A stretch of 36,903 nt of DNA. Source: Gammaproteobacteria bacterium RIFCSPLOWO2_02_FULL_38_11. GTDB taxonomy: Bacteria; Pseudomonadota; Gammaproteobacteria; HIGHO2-12-38-15. A program made the translations under genes and the position numbers. Under the pieces are notes generated by a model that saw nothing but the letters and a program-made list of their open reading frames with translations, was not told where the DNA came from and ran no database searches. The stretch covers positions 558 to 37,460 of the forward strand of contig MGYM01000013.1 in NCBI GenBank assembly GCA_001801745.1, given 5' to 3'. Shown here in pieces: positions 1-36,903 of this stretch (its first letter is position 1; each line of letters starts with the position of its first letter).

Positions 1-861
1 GAAATTTTTTAATCCTGTGTAATGCTCTCGCCAAAGCGCCGGGATTGCAGTAGGGCCAATTTTAACGTCATGATAAACATTTAAAGTAAAATGTACGCCC
101 AAAAAAGGATTTTTTAAGTTGGGAACAGGGTAAATATGTGTGCGTAATACCAGAGCTGATTTATTTCCGTAAAGATATAAACCTTTGAAAGGGAGTATTT
201 CATAATTTTTTGAAAATCCAAATTGTTTTGCAATTTTATCTGCATATAATCCACTGGCATTAATAAAAAAACCCACATCATAATAATTTTTGTTGGTTTG
301 AATAATGTTTTTTTTGTTTTTTAAAAAAATTTCATTGGTTTGGAGTTGAATACCTGCTTGATGTAAATCTTTCGTTAATTCTTTTATGATTAAGCTTGAG
401 TCAACAGATGATGTGTGTGGTGAAAATAAAGCTTTTTGATACGTTTTAACCTGAGGTTCAATTTCTTTTGCTTGTTGTTCATCAAGTAGGTACAACTCAA
501 TTTTATTTTCTTTGCCACGTTGCAATAAGGTGTGGAGTCCGGCTAGGTCTTCTTCGTTACGCGTAACCACCAGTTTTCCACATTGATTAATCGGTAATTT
601 CTTTTCTAAACAATACTGGGTCAATGCAATATTGCCTTCTTTGCAAAACCTTGCTTTTAAACTTTCAGGCGTGTAATAAAAACCGGCGTGGAGTACGCCA
701 CTGTTGCGACCACTGGCGTGTAATCCGGGCGCAGATTCTTTTTCAATTAAAATAATATGTGATTCAGGGTGTTTGCGTTTGAGTGCCAATGCGGTGGTGA
801 TGCCAAGAATACCTGCGCCAACAATGAAAAAATCACAGGGGGTGGGGTGGTGATGACTCAT
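1..861 (-). CDS. lhgO: FAD-dependent L-2-hydroxyglutarate oxidase/dehydrogenase, 3' end cut by the window edge
   Basis: Not in the supplied track because it is edge-truncated. My own translation from ATG (complement of 859-861) stays open to position 1: MSHHHPTPCDFFIVGAGILGITTALALKRKHPESHIILIEKESAPGLHASGRNSGVLHAGFYYTPESLKARFC... It has a GxGxxG FAD fold and is collinear with E. coli LhgO/YgaF (EKESAP..H.SG.NSGV.HAG.YYTP.SLKA.FC). Its ATG overlaps the upstream gene's TGA (ATGA at 858-861). Confidence 0.8.
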   Translation of the reverse strand, partial: MSHHHPTPCDFFIVGAGILGITTALALKRKHPESHIILIEKESAPGLHASGRNSGVLHAGFYYTPESLKARFCKEGNIALTQYCLEKKLPINQCGKLVVTRNEEDLAGLHTLLQRGKENKIELYLLDEQQAKEIEPQVKTYQKALFSPHTSSVDSSLIIKELTKDLHQAGIQLQTNEIFLKNKKNIIQTNKNYYDVGFFINASGLYADKIAKQFGFSKNYEILPFKGLYLYGNKSALVLRTHIYPVPNLKNPFLGVHFTLNVYHDVKIGPTAIPALWREHYTGLKNF

Positions 862-2567
862 ATCTTTGTTCGAGCTCGTCCAAGGCTTGCCATCTTTTCC
901 TGCGATGCAGGGGAAGACCTATGTGCAGCAAGTATTTCTTGATGAATTAATTTGAAACTTCTTACGTGAGGATGTAAAGATTTTAAATTTTCTGGTAATG
1001 ATTTTATTTCAGCACGTGCAGTTTCATAGTCAGAATAAATGCCTTTAGTTAATATGAACCAGGGTTTGTTGTTTTGTAATGTGCGATAAACATGACTGCC
1101 CCTTTCTAAATGATATTGTTTTTTGAAAGCGTCAATTTCATTTTGTGTGTGTGCTGCAAAATATTGTAAAGCATAATTGTTTTCACCTAATTTCATTAAA
1201 TAAGTTTCATCATAAGTGTAGGTTTTAAATGGGCTTATTACTGTTTTTTTAGATTTTGCTGCAGGCGTTGGTGTTGCTTTTGCTTTGGGTTTTTCTGTGG
1301 GTAAGGTATGCGCTTTTGCGAGAGAAGGCAGGGGTGTCAATGCTTCAGATAAAGCAGTACGTACTGCTAAATTGCTTGTTTGAACGGTTTTTTCTGTTTT
1401 GGCAGCAATAACAGGTTTAGAAATTTCTGAAGGTTTTGTGTTTTTGATTTGCTTTAAAGGTTCAAGTGCCTCAGGGTTGGGGGTGGGTTTGATTTCTTCT
1501 TCAATGATAACGCCAGCAGGAGGAAGCGGATCTGTCCCATTTAAAAAGTAAGCCAGGATAAAGATGCTTGATAAAAAGAGTAATCCGCCAATTAATTTGG
1601 TTTGGCTAGGACGAAATTTTTCGAAATAATGGAGTGCAGCATATTCTGTTTTTTGATTGATGTTGGAAAGCAAAAGGCGAGGCGCAATCCTGTTAATTTT
1701 GGCAGGCATGCCTTCTGATAATCGGTAGATTGTTTCAAGCGTGGAAGAAGCTAAATGCCCTGTTGTTGCAAAAATATTATTTTTAATTTGCTGTTCAAGA
1801 TAATTTTTTGTTTCTTCTAAACTGAAAGGAGTGAGAGGCAAAGTAAGAATTAAGCCGGTGTTTAAAGGATCTTGGGCTAATATGTTTAAATTGGTTTGTA
1901 ATGTCGGTGAACCAAATAAAATAACATGGAAATTTGATGGTAAAGCTTGATGTTGACTAATTAAAGAGAGTAAACAAACAAGGGTTTTGATTGGTAAATT
2001 TTCTGCGTTATCAATGAGTAAAACGCAGAGTTGCGGCGCATTTTCTAAAGTTTCAACTTGTGTATGCAGTTTTCTATCGATGGTTTCTTCAATTGTCGCA
2101 TTGTAATTTAAGATGTCGTCAATGACAGGGGTGATTCTGCCTGCTTGTTGTAAAGGTATGGACGGGAGGTGAAATCCTTCTGTTAATAAAGTCAGTAGTT
2201 GTTGTTTGTCTAAAGTGGGCTGCGCGAAGATTTGGCATGTTTGAGCTTGTTCGCTCGTGCATACGTGAATATGACTTGATAATAAAGAAGAATGGGTCAT
2301 GGAGTGTGTCAATTCGCCATTGTGAATGACATCGATAAATTGACACATCAAGGTTGTTTTGCCTGCGCCTGTGGGTGCAGTCACAGTCACTAAAACATTG
2401 CGATGATAACACAAGTCTTGCAGTAAATCTAAGTAATGTTCCCAAGAAGCGGGAAGATAAGGCGCGTCTTCCTGCGTTAAGAGATTTTCAATGCTCTCTT
2501 GCTCTTCTTTATGCTGACGGCGATTTAGTAATTCTGCAGAGGTGATGTCCTTTTCAAGATCAAGCAT
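858..2567 (-). CDS. ExeA-like AAA ATPase - single TM - DamX-type SPOR domain protein
   Basis: Track ORF 858..2582. Walker A is TAPTGAGKTT and a Walker B-like segment is VLLIDNAENL. There is one hydrophobic span (LIGGLLFLSSIFILAYFL) and a P/K/T/A-rich linker. The C-terminal SPOR (NYALQYFAAH...KPWFILTKGIYSDYETARAEIKSLPENLKSLHPHVRSF) closely resembles the E. coli DamX C-terminus. I moved the start to ATG 2567 (MLDLEKD), which has AGGAG 6 nt upstream and lies 1 nt after the pmbA stop. Confidence 0.75.
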   Translation of the reverse strand: MLDLEKDITSAELLNRRQHKEEQESIENLLTQEDAPYLPASWEHYLDLLQDLCYHRNVLVTVTAPTGAGKTTLMCQFIDVIHNGELTHSMTHSSLLSSHIHVCTSEQAQTCQIFAQPTLDKQQLLTLLTEGFHLPSIPLQQAGRITPVIDDILNYNATIEETIDRKLHTQVETLENAPQLCVLLIDNAENLPIKTLVCLLSLISQHQALPSNFHVILFGSPTLQTNLNILAQDPLNTGLILTLPLTPFSLEETKNYLEQQIKNNIFATTGHLASSTLETIYRLSEGMPAKINRIAPRLLLSNINQKTEYAALHYFEKFRPSQTKLIGGLLFLSSIFILAYFLNGTDPLPPAGVIIEEEIKPTPNPEALEPLKQIKNTKPSEISKPVIAAKTEKTVQTSNLAVRTALSEALTPLPSLAKAHTLPTEKPKAKATPTPAAKSKKTVISPFKTYTYDETYLMKLGENNYALQYFAAHTQNEIDAFKKQYHLERGSHVYRTLQNNKPWFILTKGIYSDYETARAEIKSLPENLKSLHPHVRSFKLIHQEILAAHRSSPASQEKMASLGRARTKI

Positions 2568-2568
2568 G

Positions 2569-3912
2569 TTACTCTCCTGCAATAGTCATCTCATCAATTA
2601 AAATAGACCCGGTTTGAATCGAACTTCTTTTTTCAATATCAGTGCCAATGGCAAGGATACCCATGAACATATTTTTTAAATTACCTGCAATTGTGATTTC
2701 TTCGACAGGGTATTGTATCTCACCTTTTTCAACCCAAAAACCCGTGGCACCGCGGGAGTAATCACCGTTAACAAGATTAATGCCTTGCCCCATGAGCTCT
2801 GTGATCACTAAACCCGTGTCCATTTTTTTTAATAATTCTTCAAAAGTGTCAGCACTGTGTGAGACGAGTATGTTGTGTATTCCGCCCGCATTTCCTGTGG
2901 GTTCCATGCCTAGTTTTCTTGCGGTGTAACTATTTAAAAAATAACTTTTTAAAATGCCTTGGTGAATTAAATCACGCGGTCTGGGGGTTGCACCTTCATC
3001 ATCAAAAGGTGCACTTGCCAACCCTTTTATAATAAAGGGTTCTTCACGAATTTGAATATGTGAGGGAAAAACAGGTTTTTCAAGATAATCACACAAAAAA
3101 GAAGATTTTCGATATAAATTACTGCCACGAATTGCCGCTAAAAAATGAGAAATTAAAGCAGGGCTCACATTAGAAGAGAAAATAACAGGTGTTTTTCGTG
3201 TTGAAAGTTTTTTTGCGCCGAGTCGACGCAAAACTTTTGTTGCCGCTTCTTTTGCAATTTCTTTTGCAGAGAAAAGTTCAAGCGGGTCGCGTGCAATACT
3301 ATAACCATAATCGCGTTGCATGCGATCATTTTCATTTGCAATTAAAGTACAATTTAAATTATAGAAACTTGAAGAGTAGTGCCCACAAAAACCTATACTG
3401 TTAGCGTAAACAAAATGATTTTCGTGCGTTGAAAGTGTTGCGCCTTCTGAGTTTGAAATTCGTTTGTCATAAGCGCGCCCTATGTTTTCAACTTCTTTGG
3501 CAAGTTCAATGCCTTGTTCTGGCGTGATAGACCAAGGATAAAATAATTTTAAATCGGGATAGTTGAAAGCAAGAAATTTTTTTTCTATGAGACCCGCGCA
3601 GTTGTCTTCAGAGGTGTATTTAGCAATGTGACATGCTGCAGAGACTGCTTCATTTAAGGCGGTTTCTTCAATGGCAGAAAGAGAGGTGGTCCCTTTTTTT
3701 TGTCCGAAATAAACAGTAATGCCAATGCCTTTGCTGCGGTGATACTCCAGCGTTTCAACTTCTCCTAGTCGTACTTGTGTTGTGAATCCAAGACCATTTG
3801 AAATAGAAACTTCGGCGTCAGTGGCGCCTTGCTTTTTTGAAAAATCTAAAATATGGTGTGCAATATTTTTTAATTTTTCAAAAGATAAAGGTGTTTTTTC
3901 TTGAGTTGACAT
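2569..3912 (-). CDS. pmbA: Metalloprotease PmbA (TldE)
   Basis: A 447-aa ORF that is full-length collinear with the PmbA/TldD family. It has the typical N-terminus (...DAEVSISNGLGFTTQVRLGEVETLEY) and C-terminus (GDYSRGATGFWVEKGEIQYPVEEITIAGNL). Confidence 0.9.
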   Translation of the reverse strand: MSTQEKTPLSFEKLKNIAHHILDFSKKQGATDAEVSISNGLGFTTQVRLGEVETLEYHRSKGIGITVYFGQKKGTTSLSAIEETALNEAVSAACHIAKYTSEDNCAGLIEKKFLAFNYPDLKLFYPWSITPEQGIELAKEVENIGRAYDKRISNSEGATLSTHENHFVYANSIGFCGHYSSSFYNLNCTLIANENDRMQRDYGYSIARDPLELFSAKEIAKEAATKVLRRLGAKKLSTRKTPVIFSSNVSPALISHFLAAIRGSNLYRKSSFLCDYLEKPVFPSHIQIREEPFIIKGLASAPFDDEGATPRPRDLIHQGILKSYFLNSYTARKLGMEPTGNAGGIHNILVSHSADTFEELLKKMDTGLVITELMGQGINLVNGDYSRGATGFWVEKGEIQYPVEEITIAGNLKNMFMGILAIGTDIEKRSSIQTGSILIDEMTIAGE

Positions 3913-6477: not shown

Positions 6478-7378
6478 TTTAGAAAAACCAGTTGATCAAA
6501 TAAAAGAATTTTTAACATCTTTTCAATTTCAATTGTGTGATGCACTGGAAGAACAAGAAGAGGGTGGGAAATTTAAAGAAGAAAGCTGGAAAAATGTTTT
6601 GGGTGAGGGTTGTACTTGCGTATTAGAAGCGGGAAAACACTTAGAGCGAGCGGGGGTGAATGTTTCTCATATTTTGGGAGAGCGTTTGCCGGCCGCGGCT
6701 ACGACGAAGCATCCTGATTTAACAGGCTGTCGATTTGAGGCCTTGGGGCTTTCTTCTGTTATTCATCCGCGTAACCCTTATGTGCCCACGACGCATTTGA
6801 ATGTCCGGTTTTTTGTAGCGTATCAAGAAGAGAAAGTGGTCGGGTGGTTTGGTGGAGGCTTTGATTTAACGCCTTATTATGGGTTTGAAGAGGATTGCAA
6901 GCTCTGGCATCAACATGCATTGAAAGCTTGTGAGACCTTGGGCGAGGGGTATTATAAAAAATTTAAATCTGCCTGTGATGATTATTTTTTTTTGAAAGCG
7001 AGAAACGAACCACGTGGTATCGGTGGTATTTTTTATGATGATTTAAGTGAACCAGAATTTCCTCGTTGTTTTGAATTCATGAAAAATGTTGCTTCGCATT
7101 TTCTTGTTGCATACATTACGATTTTGAAAAAAAGAAAAAATTATCCTTATGGAGAAAAAGAGCGTGATTTTCAATTATATCGGCGTGGTCGTTATGTTGA
7201 ATTTAATTTACTTTATGATCGTGGCACTTTGTTTGGGCTACAATCTCAAGGGAGAATCGAATCTATTTTAATTTCTATGCCGCCTGAAGTGAGTTGGCGA
7301 TATCAATGGGAGCCTCAACCGAATTCACTTGAAGCCAAGCTTTATCAGGATTTTTTAATAAAGAGAGAGTGGGTGTAA
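6470..7378 (+). CDS. hemF: Oxygen-dependent coproporphyrinogen III oxidase
   Basis: Strongly collinear with E. coli HemF (HPRNPYVPTTHLNVRFF, WFGGGFDLTPYYGFEED, NEPRGIGGIFYDDL, YRRGRYVEFNLLYDRGTLFGLQ). I moved the start to ATG 6470 (MLNLEKPVDQIKEF), which overlaps the sixA end by 8 nt. The track start at 6401 lies inside sixA. Confidence 0.92.
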   Translation: MLNLEKPVDQIKEFLTSFQFQLCDALEEQEEGGKFKEESWKNVLGEGCTCVLEAGKHLERAGVNVSHILGERLPAAATTKHPDLTGCRFEALGLSSVIHPRNPYVPTTHLNVRFFVAYQEEKVVGWFGGGFDLTPYYGFEEDCKLWHQHALKACETLGEGYYKKFKSACDDYFFLKARNEPRGIGGIFYDDLSEPEFPRCFEFMKNVASHFLVAYITILKKRKNYPYGEKERDFQLYRRGRYVEFNLLYDRGTLFGLQSQGRIESILISMPPEVSWRYQWEPQPNSLEAKLYQDFLIKREWV

Positions 7379-7436
7379 CACAGCGGTATACTTGTCACAG
7401 ATGAAATTTCTGGTTTTCCGTCAACAAAAAGAGCGT

Positions 7437-7631
7437 GTCATCCCGAGAAAAGCACTCCACGATATTAAATAAAGAAGTACAGAGTTCCATGTGTTTTTTG
7501 AGGGATCCAGTGTTGATCTTTCTTAGTTGAACCCGATATTTTAAACCAGTAAGAAAGATTGATTCTGGATCCTGAAAAAAACACATAGACTTTTTTAAAA
7601 AATTGAAGGATATGTTTTTTCCAGGATGACG
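7437..7631. repeat. Nested palindromic repeat element, copy 1 (~195 bp)
   Basis: The outer inverted arms are GTCATCCCGAGAAAAG (7437-7452) and TTTTTTCCAGGATGACG (7615-7631). An inner ~35-bp imperfect hairpin pairs 7491-7525 with 7550-7584. The left half aligns at ~70% by eye with the element at 34506-34580 (GTCATyyCGAGAAAA.CAC.CC...AAGAAG...TGTGTTTTT.GA.G.ATCCAG). Confidence 0.7.
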
Positions 7632-7655
7632 TAGGTCAAGGAAAAATAGGGATTT

Positions 7656-8324
7656 TCATTCGGGATACCTATAGTTTCTATATTTTTCTTTTAAAGTTTC
7701 ATATTGTTTTTGAGAAGTGATATTTTCCCACAAGCCTTCGTAGAGTTCGCCTGTCACATTACCTGCTTTAATTTCAGGTAATAAAACATCTATTAATTTA
7801 AAAGCGTGTGGCGTATGCGAGGCAAATAAACGAGGGTGATATAAACCTATGTTTCCGTAAGTATATTTTGGCATACCGCTTGTTTTAATTTGATTACCTT
7901 CTAAGTGAAAATCAGGATGACAATCTGGGTGAGATGACAAAACAAGATGTGCTGATTTTTTTAAAGAAAAAAGCAAATTTGAAAAATGAAAATCAGTGAA
8001 AATATCCCCACTTATCACAAGAAAAGGCTCGTTTCCAAGTAAAGGCAGCGCTTGTGTAATGCCACCACCTGTTTCAAGGGCGGTGGGTTCGTAAGAATAA
8101 ACAAGATGAGCGCCCCACTGTTTCCCATCACCTAAATAATTCGTGATTTGTTTTGCATGATGTGAAACATTAATCACAATATCCGTGATGCCTATGCTCA
8201 CCAGCCGTTTAATGTGATGTACGATCAACGGTTCACCGGCTAAAGATAATAAAGGCTTGGGAATGCTGTCTGTGAGTGGGCGTAGTCTTTCTCCTTTTCC
8301 AGCCGCTAAAAGAAAAGCTCTCAT
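7656..8324 (-). CDS. murU: N-acetylmuramate alpha-1-phosphate uridylyltransferase (MurU-type nucleotidyltransferase)
   Basis: N-terminal sugar-nucleotidyltransferase signature MRAFLLAAGKGERLRPLTDSIPKPLL, a ~222-aa size, and a position immediately downstream of the amgK-like kinase as in Pseudomonas. I moved the start to ATG 8324, which forms an ATGA overlap with the amgK stop. Confidence 0.75.
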   Translation of the reverse strand: MRAFLLAAGKGERLRPLTDSIPKPLLSLAGEPLIVHHIKRLVSIGITDIVINVSHHAKQITNYLGDGKQWGAHLVYSYEPTALETGGGITQALPLLGNEPFLVISGDIFTDFHFSNLLFSLKKSAHLVLSSHPDCHPDFHLEGNQIKTSGMPKYTYGNIGLYHPRLFASHTPHAFKLIDVLLPEIKAGNVTGELYEGLWENITSQKQYETLKEKYRNYRYPE

Positions 8325-16580: not shown

Positions 16581-18287
<1,707 letters not shown>

Positions 18288-18339: not shown

Positions 18340-18426
18340 GCCGGGATGGCGGAACTGGTAGACGCGCCGGACTCAAAATCCGGTGGTGGCAACACCGTGT
18401 CGGTTCGATTCCGACTCTCGGTACCA
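18340..18426 (+). tRNA. tRNA-Leu (anticodon CAA), class II with long variable arm, CCA encoded
   Basis: GCCGGGATGGCGGAACTGGTAGACGCGCCGGACTCAAAATCCGGTGGTGGCAACACCGTGTCGGTTCGATTCCGACTCTCGGTACCA. The acceptor stem GCCGGGA/TCTCGGT has two G-U pairs. The anticodon stem is CCGGA/TCCGG with loop CTCAAAA. It has a T-arm GGTTCGATTCC and a long variable arm typical of Leu. Confidence 0.9.
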
Positions 18427-25594: not shown

Positions 25595-26704
25595 ATGGGT
25601 AAGTGTGTCAATCCTGGAGTCCTCGTATTAGCAGATGGTCTTATTTTTGAAGGCCTTAGCGTAGGTAGCCTGGGTGCTGTCTGCGGGGAAGTCGTATTTA
25701 ACACGGCACAAACAGGTTACCAAGAGATATTAACCGACCCTTCCTATGCTTCTCAAATTATTACTTTTACGCAGCCTCACATTGGTAATGTGGGTGTTAA
25801 CGCTTTGGATATGGAATCAGAGCATGTTTTTGCTAAAGGCGTGATCATGCGAAGCTTTTCTGATATCACGAGTAATTGGAGAGCACAAACGAGTTTAAAA
25901 AATTTTTTTGAAAAGCAGAAATTAATTGCGATCAGTGAAATTGATACGCGCGCTTTGACTCATCATTTAAGAGAAAAGGGCAGTCAATCTGCTTGTTTGA
26001 TGTCAGGAAAAATTAATATTTCAGAAGCTTTGAGATTAGCAAAAAATTTTCCGGGATTAGAAGGGAAAGATTTAGCAAAAGAAGTGACGACGAGTAAAAA
26101 TTATAGTTGGAATAAAAAAGAAGAAGGTGCGCCCTGCATTGTTGTTTACGATTTTGGTGTGAAGTACAGTATTTTACGCATGCTTTCTGAAAGTGATTAC
26201 TCCGTGATTGTTGTTCCTGCGACGACATCGCCAGAAGAAGTATTGTCGCTTCATCCCAAAGGCATCGTATTATCTAATGGGCCGGGAGATCCTGCTGCTT
26301 GTGATTATGCTATTAAAGCAATAAAGATTTTTTTAAAAAAACAAATTCCTTTAATGGGCATTTGTTTAGGTCATCAACTTTTAGCATTAGCATGTGGTGC
26401 GCAAACAAAAAAGATGAAGCGAGGTCATCATGGCGCTAATCATCCCGTTCAATGTTTAAAAACGAAATGTGTGTTTATCAGCTCACAAAATCATGGATTT
26501 GTGGTGGATGAAGACAGTTTGCCAGACAACTTATATGTAACACACCGTTCTTTATTTGATGGCACTATTGCAGGTATTGAACGTCAAGATCTGCCTGCTT
26601 TTGGTTTTCAAGGACATCCGGAAAGTAGCCCTGGTCCAACAGAATTAAATAATTTATTTGATCGTTTCTTCTCATTGATTAAGACACATGCCAAAACGAA
26701 CTGA
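25595..26704 (+). CDS. carA: Carbamoyl-phosphate synthase small (glutaminase) subunit
   Basis: [43 protein letters not shown] parallels E. coli CarA. The triad region is GICLGHQ...HGANHP...GFQGHPE. The ATG at 25595 follows AGAAGG. Confidence 0.93.
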
Positions 26705-29700
26705 TATCCATAGCATTTTAATCATCGGTGCAGGGCCTATTATCATAGGGCAGGCCTGCGAGTTTGATTATGCGGGAACACAAGCATGCAAAGCCCTAAA
26801 AGAAGAGGGTTATCGTATAATTTTAGTGAATTCCAATCCTGCCACGATGATGACAGATCCCGACATGGCTGATGCCACTTACATTGAGCCGTTAACGGTG
26901 GAGTCCCTTGAGAAAATCATTATTAAAGAACGTCCCCAAGTTTTACTGCCCACCCTCGGAGGGCAGACCGCATTAAATTGCGCGCTTGCCCTTGCAAAAC
27001 AAGGGATTTTAGAGCGATATCACATTGAGTTAATTGGCGCATCCATTAAAGCCATTGAATTAGCAGAAAATCGCAGCTTATTTCATGACTTGATGAAAAA
27101 AATTAATTTAGAAACGCCCGCTTCTTTTAAAATAAAAAATATTGAAGAATCAAAAAATATTTTGAAAATGATTTCTTTCCCCGTGATCATTCGTCCTTCT
27201 TTTGCGTTGGGAGGGACAGGTGCGGGCTTGGCATATGACGAAAAAGAATTTTTAAATTTATGTGAAAATGCCTTTGCTGTTTCAGATTTGCAAGAAATTA
27301 CGATAGATGAAGCCTTAATCGGCTGGAAAGAATTTGAATTAGAAGTGATTCGTGATCGTTTCGATAATTGCATCATCGTTTGTGGGGTTGAAAATCTTGA
27401 TCCTTTGGGTGTTCATACGGGCGACTCTATCACTGTCGCGCCGATTCAAACGCTCACAGACAAAGAATATCAAGCGATGCGACAAGATGCATTCTCAATT
27501 TTACGTGCGGTGGGTGTGGACACGGGAGGCAGTAATGTGCAGTTCGCTGTGCATCCTACAACAGGAAGACGTGTTGTCATTGAAATGAATCCGCGTGTTT
27601 CACGTTCTTCTGCTTTGGTATCTAAAGCCAGTGGGTTTCCCATTGCAAAAATAGCCGCCAAACTTGCAGTTGGGTACACCTTAGATGAATTGAGAAATGA
27701 TATCACGGGTGATCAACTGCCTTCTTCTTTTGAACCAAGCTTAGATTATGTTGTGGTAAAAATCCCAAGATTCAATTTTGAAAAATTCCCTCAACAAGAA
27801 AATAAAAAAGGCCCTCAAATGCGTTCAGTGGGTGAGGTGATGGGAATTGGACGTACTTTTGAAGAAGCACTACAAAAAGCCCTGGCAAGTTTAGAGAATA
27901 AAAACAGCGGATTTTCAACTATTTTTGAAAATTTAACTTGGGATGACTTGAAAAATAAGATTAAAGAAAATGGTTCAGAACAACTGGAGGCTATTGCAGA
28001 AGCGTTTCGTCAAGATAAAACGCCAAGAGAATTATTTGAATTAACGTATATCGATCCTTGGTTTTTGGAAAAAATAAATTCTTTAATTCAAATAGAAAAA
28101 AATATTAAAAAAAATAAAATAGATGATTTAACGCTGGATGTTTTAAAGTCGTATAAAAGACAAGGATTTTCTGATGCACACATTGCAGCTTGCGTAAATT
28201 CCTCTGAAGAAGATATTCGTCAATTAAGGTATGCGATGTTGCTTCATCCTGTGTACAAACGTGTTGATAGTTGTGCCGGTGAATTCTTTACACCAACGGC
28301 CTATCTTTATAGTACTTACGAACGAATATGTGAAGCAGCGCCTAGTCAAAAAGAAAAAATATTAATTATTGGTAGTGGTCCCAATCGTATTGGTCAAGGG
28401 ATTGAGTTTGATTATTGTTGTGTGCATGCCGTGAAAGCTTTGAAAAAAAGGGATTATGAAACGATTATGGTGAATTGTAATCCTGAAACTGTGTCAACGG
28501 ATTATGATATTGCTGATCGGCTTTATTTTTCTCCTTTAACCTTAGAAGAAGTTTTAGAAATAATTCGTCTAGAAAAACCTAAAGGTGTGTTTTTGCAATG
28601 GGGAGGGCAGACGCCTTTAAAATTAGCGGAAGATTTGGCGAAAGTGGGTATCAATCTATTAGGTCTTGATATGCAGGCTGTGCACAAAACAGAAGATCGT
28701 TATGCCTTCCAACAATTGCTTCATACCTTAAAATTAAAACAGCCTGAAAATCATTGTGTTTCTACGATACAAGAGGGTGAGAAGACTGCTAAGCAAATGG
28801 GGTTCCCCTTGATTATTCGCCCTTCTTTTGTATTAGGGGGGGCAGCGATGTCAATTATCAATGAGATGGAAAAATTAAAAATTTATTTAGAAAAAGCATT
28901 TGCGATGGATGATCGTTATCCTGTCTTAATAGAAAAGTTTTTGGAAGAAGCGCTTGAAGTGGACGTGGATGTGATCACTGACGGCGAAGAGGTGTTCATT
29001 CCTGCTTTTTTAGAACATATTGAGTTGGCAGGTGTGCACTCAGGTGATTCAGCGTGTATTACACCGATGCTTAATTTAAATAAAGAAATTCAAGAAAATT
29101 TAAAAGAACAAATTCAAAAAATTGCAAATCATTTAAATTTAAAAGGTATTTTCAATGTACAATTTGCAATTCAAAACCAAACGATTTACATCATTGAAGT
29201 TAATCCTCGTGCTTCCCGAACTTTGCCTTTTGTTTGTAAAGCCACCGGTATCCCTTTGGTGGAGCTTGCTGTTTATTGTGCGTTAGGTGAAAAATTACAA
29301 ACACAATCATTTTCTTCAATACAAAGCTTACCTTATTATTGTGTTAAAGAGGCGGTATTGCCTTTTTCGAAATTTTCAAAATCTCCTGTTTTTTTAGGAC
29401 CAGAAATGAAATCGACGGGAGAGGTGATGGGGATAGGTAGCACACCTTCTGAAGCTTATGCGAAAGCGCAGATTGCGTCAGGGAACCCTCTACCAAAACC
29501 AGGTTTGGCTTATATTGTGGCTTCATTACAAGATAAAAAATTTTTTTCAGAAAAATTAAAACAGTTAGGATTTAAAATTACGTCTAAGTTATCTTCTGAT
29601 TGTGCATTGATCATCGCAATCAATGCATTTTTTGATCCTCATGAAGAAGCGTTAAAAGCCGCTCGTTTTGCTGTTGACAAAGAGATTTGTTATGTCACCT

Positions 29701-30704
29701 CACATCGTGCTGCCTTAATGTTAATAGGTGCTTTAGATTATTACTTGAAAGAATCTTTTCAGGTGACTTCATTGCAAAATTTATATAAGCGTCAAATAAA
29801 GCATTTTTTAACAGGAGAAGAGTTAAGCCCGGATGAATTGAAAAAGATTTTAAATACCGCTTTGATATTAAAAAAGGATCGTTTTAAAAAAAATGAAAAA
29901 TTAATTTTAGAAAAAAAACAATTGGCGCTACTGTTTGACAAGCCTTCCTTGCGCACACGTTTTAGTTTTACAGTTGCCATGAGAGAGTTGGGGGGTGATG
30001 TTATTGAAAGTATTCAAACTACACGTAAAGAAGAAACGCCTGAAGATCAAGCGCGGGTGCTGAGTGCTTATTGTAGCGGCATTGTTGTTCGTACATTTGA
30101 TGATGAATATCTTAAAAAAATGTCGAGTATGAGCACGGTCCCTGTGATTAATGGCTTATCTGACTTGCATCATCCCTGCCAAATTTTAGCTGATCTTTTA
30201 ACATTGCTCGAACATTTTAGTTCTTTCCAGAATGTTACTTTATGTTATATCGGCGATGGAAATAACATTTTGCATAGCCTGTTATTACTTGCGCCGCAAA
30301 TGGGCGTGACCTTACATTATTGCTGCCCTGCAAAAAGACAGCCTCATTCTGAAATTTTGAAAAGAAGTTTAGAAAAATTAAATTCATTGACGGGAAAAAT
30401 TATTTCTTTTACAAGCCCTGAAGCTGCCATCAAACATGCCAATGCGGTTTATACGGATGTGTGGACAAGCATGGGCTTTGAAGAAAAAGCAGAAGAGTCT
30501 TTATTTCAAGGATTTCAAATCAATGAGGCATTAATGCAAAAAGCCATGCCGCATGCCATTTTAATGCATTGTCTTCCAATGCAGCGTGGAAAAGAAATCA
30601 GTGAAACCTTGCCTGAGAAAGCCGAATCTGTGATTTTTCAACAAAGTGAAAATCGATTGCATGTTCAAAAATCATTGTTATTAATGTTATTAAAGGGGAA
30701 ATAA
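26688..30704 (+). CDS. carB: Fusion protein: carbamoyl-phosphate synthase large subunit (aa 1-~1036) + ornithine carbamoyltransferase (aa ~1038-1338)
   Basis: One uninterrupted 1338-codon frame. The CarB halves are [23 protein letters not shown]... and [23 protein letters not shown]..., each with an ATP-grasp domain. The OTC part runs from nt 29799 and has KHFL..., [50 protein letters not shown] and [11 protein letters not shown]. The start overlaps the carA end by 17 nt. Confidence 0.9.
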
Positions 30705-33395: not shown

Positions 33396-34484
33396 ATGAG
33401 ACGGCCTTCTGAGGGAAAAATCATAGAAATTAAGCCTATCCGTTTAAATCCTCAAATGCTTAATTTAATTTCTGAAATAGATAGATTTCAGTGTATTTGG
33501 GTGGAGATAAAGGAATTACACCCTGAGCGTTTAGCACAATTACGCAAGGTGGCGACAATTGAGAGCATCGGTTCTTCGACCCGTATTGAAGGTTCTAGAT
33601 TATCAGACAAGGAAGTAGAAAAGTTATTATTAAATATTGAAATCCAGTCTTTTCGTTCACGTGACGAAGAAGAAATAGCGGGTTATGCAGAAGGAATAGA
33701 AGAAATATTCCAGAGTTACGATACCATTCCGCTTACAGAAAATTACATAAAGCAATTGCATTCGATATTATTAAAATACAGTTCTAAAGATGTGCGTCAT
33801 CGGGGAAAATATAAAAAATTTCCCAATCATGTAGAGGCCTTTAATAATCAAGGAAAGAGCGTAGGTATTGTTTTTGAAACAGCAAAGCCGTTCGATACTC
33901 CTTTTTTGATGAAAGAAATAATCCATTGGACCAATGAAGCTTTGCTAAAAAAGACATTACATCCTTTGGTAGTTGTAGGTATTTTTATTGTATGGTTTTT
34001 AGCGATTCATCCTTTTCAAGATGGGAATGGTCGCTTATCACGCGTCTTAACGATTTTGTTATTATTAAGGTTGGGGTATAGCTATGTCCCCTATAGTTCT
34101 TTAGAGAGCATTATCGAAGAAAATAAAAAAAATTATTATCTAGCATTAAGACGAACGCAAGCAACATTAAATAAATCCAATCCTAACTGGACAAGTTGGC
34201 TTAGATTTTTTCTTTCTGTTCTGAAAAAACAGAAGGATAATTTAAATCGAAAATTAAAAAAAGACAGTGTATTAATTGGAAAATTGAATCCATTAGAATT
34301 AGAAATAATGAATCATGTGAAATCCTATTCTCAAGTTACAATCAGCCAACTTGAAAATTTAACAAAAATAAATCGTAATACCTTAAAGAGTTTGCTAAGA
34401 GGATTAGTCAAAAAGAAATATTTGATATTATGTGGAAAGGGGCGTTCTGCGTGGTATGTGCTTGATCTACCTACTATGGATTAG
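33396..34484 (+). CDS. Fic-family protein (class II, N-terminal inhibitory helix; C-terminal winged-helix domain)
   Basis: The Fic motif HPFQDGNGRLSR lies at nt 34008-34043. The inhibitory motif [ST]xxxE[GN] is S-T-R-I-E-G at nt 33576-33593, upstream of the Fic core. The C-terminal ~70 aa are wHTH-like (LELEIMNHVKSYSQVTISQLENLTKINRNTLKSLLRGLVKKKYL). I chose the ATG at 33396. The track's TTG at 33354 would translate the tandem repeat. Confidence 0.85.
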   Translation: MRRPSEGKIIEIKPIRLNPQMLNLISEIDRFQCIWVEIKELHPERLAQLRKVATIESIGSSTRIEGSRLSDKEVEKLLLNIEIQSFRSRDEEEIAGYAEGIEEIFQSYDTIPLTENYIKQLHSILLKYSSKDVRHRGKYKKFPNHVEAFNNQGKSVGIVFETAKPFDTPFLMKEIIHWTNEALLKKTLHPLVVVGIFIVWFLAIHPFQDGNGRLSRVLTILLLLRLGYSYVPYSSLESIIEENKKNYYLALRRTQATLNKSNPNWTSWLRFFLSVLKKQKDNLNRKLKKDSVLIGKLNPLELEIMNHVKSYSQVTISQLENLTKINRNTLKSLLRGLVKKKYLILCGKGRSAWYVLDLPTMD

Positions 34485-34505
34485 TCGTTTATAAAAAACA
34501 TTTTA

Positions 34506-34699
34506 CGTCATTGCGAGAAAAACACGCCCCTTGTTTTAAAAAGAAGAAAAATCTTCCCTGTGTTTTTCGAAGCAATCCAGGACGGAGTTCTTTTTTTTAC
34601 GATTTTTTTAAAAAAGAGTTGATCTGGATTGCTTCAAAAAATGCGTGAATCCTTCTGCTTTTTTTCAAAATCATAAGACGCATTTTTTTCGCAATGACG
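34506..34699. repeat. Nested palindromic repeat element, copy 2 (~194 bp)
   Basis: The outer arms are CGTCATTGCGAGAAAAA (34506-34522) and TTTTTTTCGCAATGACG (34683-34699), with 1 mismatch. The inner arms GAAGCAATCCAG (34569-34580) and CTGGATTGCTTC (34624-34635) are a perfect 12-bp match. It is homologous to the element at 7437-7631. Confidence 0.75.
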
Positions 34700-34826
34700 A
34701 AAATCGCGTTTTCCCAAGGCCTCGTTGAAAATTTTCTGCAAGATTTTTTAATTGTCGCGCCTGAACTCTTTTAAATTAAGAAGTTTTTTTGTTTTAAACT
34801 CCCTATTCATTTTCGCGTGCGATGGA

Positions 34827-35549
34827 TTAATTTTGAAAATACTGTGCTTTCTCCCATTCTTCCTGCGTGTTAATTTCCATTGTTTTTTCATGTGTTAAAT
34901 TGACTTTGATTTTATAGCCATGTTCTAAAACACGTAATTGTTCGAGATTTTCAGCTTTGCCAAGTGGTGTTTCAGGAAGCTCACAATAGATTTTTAGAAA
35001 ATCTTTACGGAAAGCGTAGACACCAAGATGGTGATAGGCAGGCACTTCTTGAATTGTTTCACGAAAATAAGGGATTGGGGCGCGAGAAAAATAAAGTGCG
35101 TTATGGTGTTGATCTGTGACGACTTTTACGATGCTAGGGTTATTAAGATCTTCGGGTAATAAAGGGCAGGCCAGGGTTGTCATCTCAGGCATATCGCCTT
35201 GTAAATAAGAGGAAACGAGTGCTTCCAGCATCTTGGGTTTCATGAAGGGTTCATCCCCTTGTAAATTTATGATAACGTTCATGTCGGGGAAATGTTCTGC
35301 AATGATTGCTGTGCGGTGGGAACCTGAGGGAATAGCAGAATCGGTCATGATAGCCTTGCCGCCCTGACTTTGAATGAGATCAAAAATTTCTTCACTGTCT
35401 GTTGCGACTAAGACTTCTGTCAATAGTGCACACTTGCGAGCATTTTCGTAAACGTGTTGGATCATGGGTTTGCCTTGAATGGGCAACAGAGGTTTGCGAG
35501 CAAGCCGGGTAGAACCGATGCGGCTGGGGATGACACATAAGATTTTCAT
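34827..35549 (-). CDS. kdsB: 3-deoxy-manno-octulosonate cytidylyltransferase (CMP-KDO synthetase)
   Basis: MKILCVIPSRIGSTRLARKPLLPIQGKPMIQHV matches the KdsB N-terminus. Other motifs are NLQGDEP and LEQLRVLE.G. The protein is 240 aa. Confidence 0.92.
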   Translation of the reverse strand: MKILCVIPSRIGSTRLARKPLLPIQGKPMIQHVYENARKCALLTEVLVATDSEEIFDLIQSQGGKAIMTDSAIPSGSHRTAIIAEHFPDMNVIINLQGDEPFMKPKMLEALVSSYLQGDMPEMTTLACPLLPEDLNNPSIVKVVTDQHHNALYFSRAPIPYFRETIQEVPAYHHLGVYAFRKDFLKIYCELPETPLGKAENLEQLRVLEHGYKIKVNLTHEKTMEINTQEEWEKAQYFQN

Positions 35550-35609: not shown

Positions 35610-36632
35610 ATGAATGAAGAAGAAAAGATAAATCAAGTTTGTCAGGCTGTAAAACATCACCCTGATTTTTTTCATAGTATTGTTCTTTTCTATATCCGAT
35701 TAGAATTAGAGAAAAAAGAGCTGGTCCTGACTTCGCGACAGGGGATCATTATCTGTTTTAAACTTTTTTTAGATAAATTACTCCGAGAGTGTAATGAGGC
35801 AGAAGATCAAATGGGTGTCTTTTGTTTGGGGCAAGCGCTTTCTTCTTTTTCTGAAGCTGAGCCAAGTTATCTTCGTCAGTTTTTGCGGTGTTATTCGAAT
35901 GTATTAGAGTATTTATATCTTAATATAATTGAAGATGAAAAATTTATAAAAAAAATTTCGGACTGGGAAAAGTCCCGTGGTTCTATTAGTCATTTGTCCA
36001 TTCAATCTCTTTCTTTGATTGAGGCTGTGAGAAGAAATGATTTTCCTTCACTACGATTATTTTTGAGAAAAAATCGTCAGCTCTGTATAGATTTAAATGA
36101 TAAGATGACTGTTTTAAAAAGGACATTAAAAAAATCCGACAGTTATCTTTATTCTTATCCCGAGATTACTGATGTTGCTAAATCATACGCATTCTCTGTT
36201 ATTAATGTCCCCGATCTTTCGGGTCGTACTGCGATAGATCACGCTGTGGATGGGGTTGTGAAGGGTGATGATAAATACTATGAGGCTTTAGTAGCGTATT
36301 TTGGATTTAAATATATTAACTGCCCAGAGCCAATCTTGGATTCAAGCGAGCTTAATTTCATTCAGCGTTTGTTTGATGCGGGGTATTTGTCAAAAAAAAT
36401 AAAGGAGACGACTGATCTTGAGTACCTCTCTGAGTTTTGTGCTTTTTACTATAATGCTTTGGATCCAAACAGGCGAGAGGCGTTTCTAAAAGTTTATATT
36501 CCACGATGTAATCGTTTTTTATCCCCGTTATGCTCTAGCAAGAGAGTGCATGCAGGGATAAAAGACCAAGAAACAGAATATGATGAGCCAATAGTGCCAA
36601 TGCAGGCGAGTAGTTCTATGTCTTATTCCTGA
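35610..36632 (+). CDS. Hypothetical protein with degenerate ankyrin-like repeats (orphan; effector candidate)
   Basis: A 340-aa ORF with GAGGA 4 nt upstream of the ATG. I recognised no catalytic motif. Two segments resemble ankyrin repeats by eye: LIEAVRRNDFPSLRLFLRKNRQLCIDLND and DLSGRTAIDHAVDGVVKG. The C-terminal tail is acidic and Ser-rich (KDQETEYDEPIVPMQASSSMSYS). Confidence 0.6.
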   Translation: MNEEEKINQVCQAVKHHPDFFHSIVLFYIRLELEKKELVLTSRQGIIICFKLFLDKLLRECNEAEDQMGVFCLGQALSSFSEAEPSYLRQFLRCYSNVLEYLYLNIIEDEKFIKKISDWEKSRGSISHLSIQSLSLIEAVRRNDFPSLRLFLRKNRQLCIDLNDKMTVLKRTLKKSDSYLYSYPEITDVAKSYAFSVINVPDLSGRTAIDHAVDGVVKGDDKYYEALVAYFGFKYINCPEPILDSSELNFIQRLFDAGYLSKKIKETTDLEYLSEFCAFYYNALDPNRREAFLKVYIPRCNRFLSPLCSSKRVHAGIKDQETEYDEPIVPMQASSSMSYS

Positions 36633-36650
36633 AACCTTGTACTTGAAGTC

Positions 36651-36783
36651 GTCCGTGAAAAACGTCCTTTTTGCTTTATTTCTTTGTTGCGCGAATTTTT
36701 TAAATGCTCATTTACGCTATGTAAACTGCGCTTTAAAAAATTCACGCGCCTCGAACTAAAGCAAAATGAGACGTTTTCCGGAC
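36651..36783. repeat. Short diverged member of the palindromic element family, copy 3 (~133 bp)
   Basis: The outer arms are GTCCGTGAAAAACGTC (36651-36666) and GACGTTTTCCGGAC (36770-36783). The inner arms are GCGCGAATTTTTTAAA (36689-36704) and TTTAAAAAATTCACGCGC (36732-36749). The terminal sequences align with copy 2 (CGTC..CG.GAAAAAC / GCAA..TGA). It is followed by a ~100-nt tail homologous to 34705-34804. Confidence 0.6.
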
Positions 36784-36903
36784 ACCTGCTTTCAAAATAT
36801 TTTGCAAGATTTTGAAAGAGTCACACGTGAAATCTTGAAAATTAGAGAGCTTGGTTTTTAACTTAAACTCCTTTTTTTATCGCACCATCATACTTTTTCA
36901 CGT

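Follow-up and report, generated by a model that had tools for sequence, protein, structure and literature searches.

Repetitive extragenic palindromic (REP) sequences with a CGTC tag have been divided into the families CGTC-1 to CGTC-4 by Di Nocera, De Gregorio and Rocco (2013, BMC Genomics 14:522; PMC3733652). Some of the Rickettsia palindromic elements (RPEs) fall within it: CGTC-1 is equated with the Neisseria dRS3 repeat and R. conorii RPE-6, CGTC-4 with RPE-4, and CGTC repeats are also found in Coxiella burnetii (PMC3733652). Here we describe three palindromic elements, c1, c2 and c3, in a 36,903 nt stretch of DNA (the window) from Gammaproteobacteria bacterium RIFCSPLOWO2_02_FULL_38_11 (assembly GCA_001801745.1, contig MGYM01000013.1, positions 558 to 37,460). 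The c1 element lies in the spacer between fic and kdsB, c2 between hemF and a murU-like gene, and c3 close to the window end. It is quite likely that c1 and c2 represent a non-autonomous, hairpin-forming mobile repeat belonging to the class of CGTC-tagged REPs and Rickettsia RPE-4/-6, carried by a divergent aquifer gammaproteobacterium. The class is already described and is found here in an enlarged form; this is not a new kind of element. New here are the covariation within each arm, a layered composite structure, and a site that segregates between filled and empty forms and has an 8-bp direct repeat.

The CGTC REP unit has an unpaired CGTC (or TGTC/CCTC) tag, an 8–9-bp stem that starts with A-T and T-A pairs, a 4–5-nt loop and a CCA tail (PMC3733652). 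The units are found mostly as inverted pairs, often heterodimers, that fold separately or together, and they are sometimes situated inside outer palindromes, as in H. neapolitanus. They lie between unidirectional and convergent open reading frames (ORFs), rarely divergent ones, are present in 5 phyla, and have no dedicated transposase (PMC3733652). The ATGAC sequence is a hallmark of RPE-4/-6/-7 (PMC3767692).

Two hairpin arms in c1 and c2

The sequence-only reading described c1 as a long imperfect palindrome with 17-bp terminal inverted repeats and a perfect 12-bp inner repeat, and both features are present. The termini CGTCATTGCGAGAAAAA (34506–34522) and TTTTTTTCGCAATGACG (34683–34699) match at 16 of 17 positions, and the inner repeat, GAAGCAATCCAG (34569–34580) with CTGGATTGCTTC (34624–34635), shows no mismatch. 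The c2 element (7437–7631), proposed as a second, related element, was found to align with c1 over the entire element length. Single-strand folds give −65.4 kcal/mol (z = −7.1) for c1 and −72.8 kcal/mol (z = −10.3) for c2, and in each case 0 of 200 dinucleotide shuffles fold as well. An arm pattern written from the four c1/c2 arms, GTCATYSYGRRAAAAN{30,60}TTTTTN{5,9}ATCCAG, matches exactly these four arms in the window, where shuffles give an expectation of 0.00. Thus the similarity of c1 and c2, for which low-complexity A/T runs had been named as a possible source, persists and is not an A/T-run effect.

A scan of metagenome contigs with the arm pattern returned 34 stretches, of which ~28 are family members. 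After merging of identical loci there are 25 distinct sites, i.e. the two in the window and 23 more. The contigs that carry them have a G+C content of 33–40% and come from the same aquifer project. A family profile built from 19 copies gives E-values of 1e-22 to 1e-54 for the family members (8.5e-47 for c1 and 1.2e-25 for c2), with 30 or more copies at 1e-25 to 1e-54. Three subfamilies are found, c1-like (190–199 bp), c2-like with an ATCC foot (196–204 bp) and short-spacer (171–177 bp), and all full copies are inverted pairs. Depth places the metagenome family contigs in the population of the window: across four runs the flanks of locus L215 show 9.7/22.5/78.5/7.1 and those of the window ~10/24–26/70–83/8.9. 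In the same metagenomes the summed contig depth on the arms is 20–47 times that of the flanks. The c1 arm shows a depth of 160–265 and its flank ~9 (at least 85% likeness), and the consensus-like A arm of L215 shows 273–3200 with 7–78 on the flank, or ~40-fold (at least 88% likeness). These depths suggest ~20–40 arms per genome equivalent, with the reservation that summed contig depth differs from copy number. One family site is in the sibling NCBI assembly GCA_001801895.1 (a sibling of GCA_001801435.1), which is absent as a separate species from the genome contig collection, and full pairs are found in two other proteobacterial metagenome-assembled genomes (MAGs; L241 and L243). The suggestion of a dispersed MITE- or REP-like family (MITE, miniature inverted-repeat transposable element), made from the window only, is borne out by the number of sites, the arm depth and the filled/empty polymorphism given below.

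Each arm is a module that folds on itself, with the layout 5′-(C/T)GTC [ATTGC] GA [G...inner hairpin...C] G(A/T)(A/G) [GCAAT] CCAG. An unpaired CGTC or TGTC tag precedes a 5–6-bp foot helix that starts with A-T and T-A pairs, followed by a conserved GA / GWR internal loop and a 9–10-bp A/T-run helix closing ~37 nt; the CCAG tail comes after the foot. The structured insert inside the foot helix is 57–58 nt and the arm unit ~75 nt. Both c1 arms are tagged CGTC, in c2 the left tag is TGTC and the right one CGTC, and GTCAT is kept in 22 of 22 aligned copies. The foot of c1 (ATTGC/GCAAT) differs from those of c2 (ATCCC/GGGAT and ATCCTG/CAGGAT), with pairing retained through changes on both sides, and each foot version is then followed by CCAG. 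Helices 1 and 4 are paired in 99% of cells of the alignment. Each of the copies found combines an A arm, with the inner helix AAAAACAC/GTGTTTTT, and a B arm in inverted orientation, with AAAAATGCG/CGCATTTTT.

Covariation was tested on an alignment of 22 distinct copies with two structures and 500 shuffles each. With the two-arm fold, 93.3% of cells are paired and 19 of 45 pairs show double changes, compared with 6.1 ± 1.6 in shuffles, a value that 0 of 500 shuffles reach. The single long hairpin has 83.8% of cells paired and double changes in 12 of 72 pairs; since shuffles give 12.3, and 320 of 500 reach the observed value, the long hairpin displays no excess. The differences between A and B arms are paired transitions, which preserve the helix of the arm itself and weaken the pairing of arm to arm. 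What is conserved is thus a pair of adjacent hairpins (a DNA cruciform, or two single-strand hairpins), a heterodimer in the terms of Di Nocera et al., and not one long hairpin, and the nested palindrome previously taken as the key structure is not favored. Three divergent copies (c2, L201 and L241) account for most of the double changes, therefore the number of independent events is small. Folding energies of the two strands and G-U versus A-C counts show no consistent strand bias, the count itself being biased by the way the structure was derived. The apical spacer of c1 has a T run (34588–34596) of variable length, T8 in two assemblies as well as the window, and T9 in five other near-identical assemblies and several metagenome runs.

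ORFs lie on both sides at 22 sites; their arrangement is convergent at 13, tandem at 8 and divergent at 1, with ORFs called crudely from stop to stop at a minimum of 100 aa; a preference for 3′ ends, one of the checks proposed beforehand, is therefore seen. At the tandem sites the A-to-B orientation is sense in 4 and antisense in 3. In the window, the genes flanking c2 carry the Pfam domains Coprogen_oxidas (hemF) and NTP_transferase (murU-like) and those flanking c1 Fic and CTP_transf_3 (kdsB). The placement between convergent 3′ ends extends to c3 as well, where the neighbor past the window is a minus-strand isocitrate dehydrogenase gene that stops at ~36908–36910.

A search of Rfam, also proposed in the sequence-only reading, yields no family for the elements at gathering score. 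In E-value mode just long-hairpin miRNA models appear, far under their thresholds, as does Wolbachia WsnRNA46 with 23.5 bits where 65.3 are required. The sole window match to reach gathering score is a tRNA gene (18340–18423, RF00005, 56.5 bits), which is overlapped by mechanical ORFs. NCBIfam shows no match to six-frame ORFs of the elements, and likewise none in a Rickettsia control. Literature searches for the literal motifs gave primer coincidences only.

Likeness to described repeat classes

The elements share with CGTC REPs the tag (CGTC, sometimes TGTC), the A-T/T-A start of the stem and the CCA tail (CCAG here), the inverted pairs, able to fold either one by one or into a single long stem-loop, the heterodimer-like A and B arms, the outer palindromes, the location in spacers of unidirectional or convergent ORFs, and the lack of an adjacent transposase. 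They differ in dimensions: a 5–6-bp foot, a 57-nt insert and a ~75-nt unit here, compared with an 8–9-bp stem, a 4–5-nt loop and a ~30-nt unit. Head-to-head dimers predominate in the account given by the paper, whereas here the tags point outward and the tails face each other, although the naming of orientations in that paper may differ. The host here is an uncultured gammaproteobacterium, and the survey reports nothing like the polymorphic composite with a flanking direct repeat (PMC3733652).

Modules of the form GTCATTGCGAG-[hairpin]-CG(A/T)(A/G)GCAATCC are present in 38 of 111 loci fetched by an exact 16-mer, among the matches listed, in a scan that gives mostly chance matches. Their hosts, among the matches listed, include several Rickettsia species, Mucispirillaceae, Desulfovibrionaceae, Helicobacter, Campylobacter, Melainabacteria, Omnitrophota and Bacteroidota. 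The modules extend over Rickettsia and about 10 phyla, and across these 38 loci of many phyla there is no recurrent neighboring gene or protein family. Inverted pairs of GTCATTGCGAG...GCAATCCAG modules, ~120 nt long, are found in several Rickettsia species. Single GTCATTGCGAG...CGTGGCAATCC modules are very abundant in a Mucispirillaceae gut MAG (L092, L122, L163, L173, L180) and in Desulfovibrionaceae gut MAGs (L118, L129, L143, L146, L160, L169, L170, L182). The Desulfovibrionaceae modules have an inner hairpin of 57 nt, as in c1, and match the family profile weakly (E = 1e-5 to 6e-3).

With RPE-4/-6/-7 (Ogata et al., 2000, 2002; PMC3767692; reviewed in PMC10969869) the elements share GTCAT...ATGAC termini, a palindromic pair architecture of 100–150 bp and the lack of a known transposase. 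The literal motifs CGTCATTGCGAG, CGAAGCAATCCAG and CTGGATTGC are present in Rickettsia copies (L089:4464–4583 and L165:564–683). They differ in that full-length sequence similarity is lacking and that the elements here are 171–202 bp long, are intergenic and not in frame inside genes, and have a host outside Rickettsiales. The likeness to short palindromic repeats of intracellular bacteria, which the sequence-only reading suggested, is thereby substantiated by the modules that several Rickettsia species carry as inverted pairs, and is backed by the ATGAC mark (PMC3767692) and by the inclusion of RPE-4 and RPE-6 among CGTC-tagged REPs (PMC3733652).

A description by Wachter et al. (2018, PMC5896051) allows comparison with QMITE2 of Coxiella burnetii. 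Shared features, by description only, are a host group related to Legionellales/Coxiellales, a size of 150–190 bp with a very stable hairpin and ~50 copies, direct repeats of 7–11 nt with variable sequence, and location mostly in 3′ untranslated regions or intergenic sequence with small overlaps of ORF 3′ ends, including that of a Fic-family gene. QMITE2 differs in being built on a GTAG REP with an IS1111 target. Features of classical MITEs are also displayed here: terminal repeats, one direct repeat with an empty site, a length of 171–338 bp and 25 sites. The proposal of a mobile structured terminator was not supported, as there is no intrinsic terminator (stem and T run) in 34300–34950 or in 7250–7800; neither the c1 nor the c2 spacer shows a promoter.

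REP doublets that form hairpins (REPINs) are reportedly moved by REP-associated tyrosine transposases (RAYTs), as is said to follow from work by Bertels and Rainey in 2011 and by Nunvar and co-workers in 2010. RAYTs are of the IS200/IS605 Y1 type, and Y1 transposases leave no target duplication. The elements here resemble REPINs in the inverted doublet of short hairpins, the conserved tag beside the foot and the tens of dispersed intergenic copies. They differ in the tag, CGTC here and GTAG in REPINs, in having no RAYT link known or seen, and in the flanking direct repeat at the one datable site.

Composite layers and the polymorphic fic-kdsB spacer

The repeated or mobile unit exceeds 195 bp. 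In c1, the 195-bp core is the center of a ~338-bp composite that consists of an outer palindrome with c3-type termini, the core and a hairpin tail, and this composite occupies the whole fic-kdsB spacer. A degenerate copy of the outer layer is seen around c1 (GTCGTTTATAAAAAAC at 34484 and GAAAATCGCGTTTTCC at 34700), and the terminal motif GTCRYNNNKRRAAAA has 7 matches in the window with 0.38 expected. The outer palindrome also surrounds c1-type cores at L200, L206, L209 and L215, with termini GTCATCCGTAAAAAAC and GTCGTCCGTAAAAAAC that equal the c3 termini GTCGTCCGTGAAAAAC. A tail of ~100 nt after the outer palindrome is common to c1, c3, L200 and L215; in better-preserved copies it is a small hairpin unit with termini GTCACACGTGAAA... 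and ...TTTCACGTGYGAC. The tail at L215 (4953–5067) has 90% identity to window positions 36789–36903, and the depth on the tail in metagenome contigs is 9–16 times that of the flank.

The c3 element (36651–36783) had been regarded as a shorter relative of c1 and c2. Its hairpin is strong (z = −7.75, 0 of 200 dinucleotide shuffles as good) and its termini GTCGTCCGTGAAAAAC are shared with the outer layer, but the core is different, carries no GTCAT module and has no match to the family profile. Thus c3 is a relative by way of the outer layer and not of the core.

The short-spacer copies are embedded in mosaics that include small G+C hairpins (CAGGCCTTCGGCCTG). Flanks of this ~172-bp subfamily (L203, L204, L205, L207, L210, L212, L217, L218, L222, L223, L226) are longer conserved mosaics, with ~50 nt on the A side (...TTGAGATTGAAAATTAAAATTTGATTTCATCATAAAATTGCGATTACA) and small G+C hairpins (CAGGCCGAAGGCCTG) on the B side. 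The G+C hairpins are sometimes found on both sides in inverted orientation, an organization like that of bacterial interspersed mosaic elements (BIMEs) or Neisseria intergenic mosaic elements (NIMEs). One match to the terminal motif, GTCATCTAGAAAAAA at 16886–16900 (minus strand), is inside a 561-aa ORF (16581–18266) and is probably due to chance. A 340-aa ORF (35610–36632), with no Pfam match, adjoins kdsB between the c1 and c3 composites; inverted family termini at 34484 and 36908 enclose the two genes, which is probably coincidental.

At fic-kdsB the composite is polymorphic. Filled and empty forms were read from assembly-graph contigs of metagenome runs. ATGGATTA is the only direct repeat of at least 8 nt that brackets the spacer, and the inserted unit (~34484–34821) starts exactly at the outer-layer terminus. 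A minor contig in runs X5, X6 and X7 carries positions 34421–34485 (with 4 differences) and then directly TTTTGAAATACTGTGCTTTTTCCCATTCTT, which is the window sequence from 34831; in X5 the empty-form contig of 115 nt is made up of 65 nt matched and 50 nt of continuation with nothing between. Depths of the empty and filled forms are 4.1 and 8 in X5 (sum 12.1, flank ~9–11), 23.2 and 51 in X6 (sum 74.2, flank ~71–83), and 10.9 and 16.7 in X7 (sum 27.6, flank ~26), the two forms adding up to the flank depth. The whole 345-bp spacer is absent in 31–39% of the population in these three samples, which answers positively the question of presence/absence polymorphism raised beforehand. Run X1 shows only the filled form, and 7 of 7 near-identical assemblies carry c1, their sole difference in the spacer being T8 or T9. 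In the empty form the stop codons of fic and kdsB overlap, and in the filled form the direct repeat restores both gene ends. This arrangement bears the marks of an insertion that duplicated its target, or of the precise loss of such an insertion. Since the 8-bp direct repeat flanks the composite and 31–39% of the population is without it, the composite appears to have entered or left recently. A kdsB search for orthologous spacers in relatives gave best matches of 46% identity in unrelated phyla, with no usable synteny. Coordinates are collected in Table 1.

Table 1. Positions of the elements, their layers and the direct repeat in the window.
Feature	Positions	Strand	Description
c2 outer-left layer	7394–7435	+	GTCACAGATGAAATTTCTGGTTTTCCGTCAAC...; inverted partner of 7632–7664; similar flank beside c2-type copy in L201
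c2 core pair	7436–7631	+	A arm: tag TGTC, P1 ATCCC/GGGAT; B arm: tag CGTC, P1 ATCCTG/CAGGAT
c2 outer-right layer	7632–7664	-	Overlaps last codons and stop (7656–58) of murU-like gene; from direct sequence reading and ORF limits
Direct repeat, left copy	34476–34483		ATGGATTA; contains last fic codons and part of fic stop
c1 outer-left layer	34484–34505	+	GTCGTTTATAAAAAACATTTTA; degenerate c3-type terminus; matches terminal motif GTCRYNNNKRRAAAA
c1 core	34506–34699		Spacer between fic (+) and kdsB (-)
c1 A arm	34506–34580	+	Tag CGTC 34506–09; P1 ATTGC 34510–14; then GAG
c1 A arm inner helix	34518–25 with 34560–67	+	AAAAACAC with GTGTTTTT; then CGAA
c1 A arm 3′ end	34572–76; 34577–80	+	P1′ GCAAT; tail CCAG
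c1 inter-arm spacer	34581–34623		A/T-rich; T8/T9 length polymorphism near 34590
c1 B arm, inverted	34624–34699	-	Minus-strand reading GTCATTGCGAAAAAAATGCGT...ACGCATTTTTTGAAGCAATCCAG
c1 outer-right layer and ~100-nt tail	34700–34821	+	Starts GAAAATCGCGTTTTCC..., ends ...TTTTCGCGTGCG
Direct repeat, right copy	34822–34829		ATGGATTA; contains kdsB stop (TTA 34827–29, plus strand)
c3	36648–36783		Long hairpin; outer-layer termini GTCGTCCGTGAAAAAC / GACGTTTTCCGGAC; different core
Tail unit after c3	36784–36903	+	Extends to ~36907, past window end; ends TTTTTCACGTGTGAC, inverse of GTCACACGTGAAAAA

Alternatives, movement and host

Several points weigh against the assignment and against movement in this population. 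The stem and loop sizes fall outside those of CGTC REPs because the loop is a 57-nt structured insert. In 773 kb that contain several Rickettsia copies, the family profile (nhmmer) matches none of them at E < 0.01, therefore the link to RPEs consists of ~25 conserved nt per module and the architecture. No transposase-like gene or autonomous element bracketed by family termini is found in 436 kb (redundant) of contigs. No empty form appears at c2, c3 or L215 in the runs examined. The proposed check for target-site duplications gave a divided result, with the 8-bp repeat at fic-kdsB and no direct repeat of at least 8 bp at L200, L206, L209 or L215, so that a clear repeat is seen at one site only. 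Given the overlap of the two genes in the empty form, both fic and kdsB can stay intact only if the event duplicates that overlap, and the 8-bp repeat may thus reflect selection and not the usual mechanism. In addition, the empty haplotype shows 4 differences in 65 flanking bases (~5% local divergence), and it may have recombined in from a diverged strain, with no recent transposition or excision in situ.

It is possible, though we think it rather unlikely, that the elements are kept as RNA, i.e. that shared 3′-end hairpins stop read-through, block 3′ exonucleases or provide RNase III sites, with spread being secondary. The bias to 3′ ends (13 convergent and 8 tandem sites, with 1 divergent), the very stable hairpins of c1, c2 and c3, and the fixation of c2 and c3 in all runs examined agree with such a role, as do the reports that REPs are mostly transcribed downstream of ORFs (PMC3733652) and that small RNAs arise from Coxiella MITE hairpins (PMC5896051). 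However, neither spacer has a stem and T-run terminator or a promoter, the near-equal sense and antisense orientations at tandem sites are contrary to a strand-specific RNA, and a third of the population does without the entire fic-kdsB spacer. The RNA data sets checked do not contain the organism, which was found in DNA metagenomes only. An RNA role is also not needed for the pattern of sites, because selection would remove insertions in promoters or genes.

Strict REPINs, in which a single-copy RAYT encoded elsewhere in the genome would move REP doublets in the form of single-stranded hairpins, appear improbable. The hairpin doublet with a conserved unpaired tetranucleotide beside the foot is what such a system would contain, selection on the hairpin of each arm and not on the long hairpin is as expected for a protein that reads a folded single strand, and mobilization of CGTC repeats by RAYTs is left open in PMC3733652. 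The same survey, of more than 80 species, found CGTC REPs without an associated RAYT (PMC3733652). The 8-bp direct repeat at the polymorphic site, though without a counterpart of at least 8 bp at four other composites, would also be unexpected for Y1 transposases, no protein family recurs beside the 38 module loci among the matches listed, and no RAYT gene is seen in the 436 kb of this population. As for chance or low-complexity A/T-run matching between unrelated spacers, the elements are indeed A/T rich with many A and T runs, and c3 is missed by the family profile. This explanation is refuted by the four arms found where 0.00 are expected, by the E-values of the 30 or more copies, by the compensatory changes and by the depth on the arms, and it retains a negligible probability.

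In the CGTC-tagged REP / RPE interpretation, which we prefer, an enzyme acting in trans would recognize the tag and the foot of the hairpin, and the unit would be inserted by a short staggered cut. Insertions would persist where promoters and reading frames are undisturbed. After insertion, the hairpins would probably be transcribed as the 3′ ends of convergent genes, and any effect on RNA stability or read-through may be secondary. To our knowledge, no mobilizing enzyme is known for CGTC-tagged REP / RPE-type pairs since RPEs were described in 2000. A more speculative and unlikely extension is that the pairs are still moving here as ~340-bp composites by a ~8-bp staggered cut, through an enzyme of DDE or another type that makes duplications, and not through a RAYT. 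In this speculative view the enlarged 57-nt loop could be structured cargo that was added, and not the product of drift.

The host is a divergent gammaproteobacterium of groundwater, probably Legionellales/Coxiellales-like; its CarB shows 61% identity to two uncultured Gammaproteobacteria MAGs and 55% to a Coxiellales MAG. The carB ORF (26688–30704) encodes 1338 aa, ~270 aa over the usual length, and only the two uncultured Gammaproteobacteria MAGs give full-length matches (residues 1–1329/1335), others ending near residue 966–1039. The best matches of KdsB (34827–35549) in a species-representative collection are in Clostridia (Acutalibacteraceae), with 44–46% identity, and not in Proteobacteria, which may be an effect of the word-based search or a hint of an unusual gene origin.

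For annotation, the family explains why this lineage has several long spacers free of genes, as well as spurious short ORFs. From the sequence limits of c2, the element may provide the last codons and stop of at least one gene (murU-like). Small palindromic repeats of the CGTC/RPE class span many phyla. Direct evidence of recent gain or loss is rare for these repeats; the fic-kdsB polymorphism supplies it and restricts which types of enzyme are candidates. If the pairs are still moving, this organism would be a place to identify the mobilizing enzyme.

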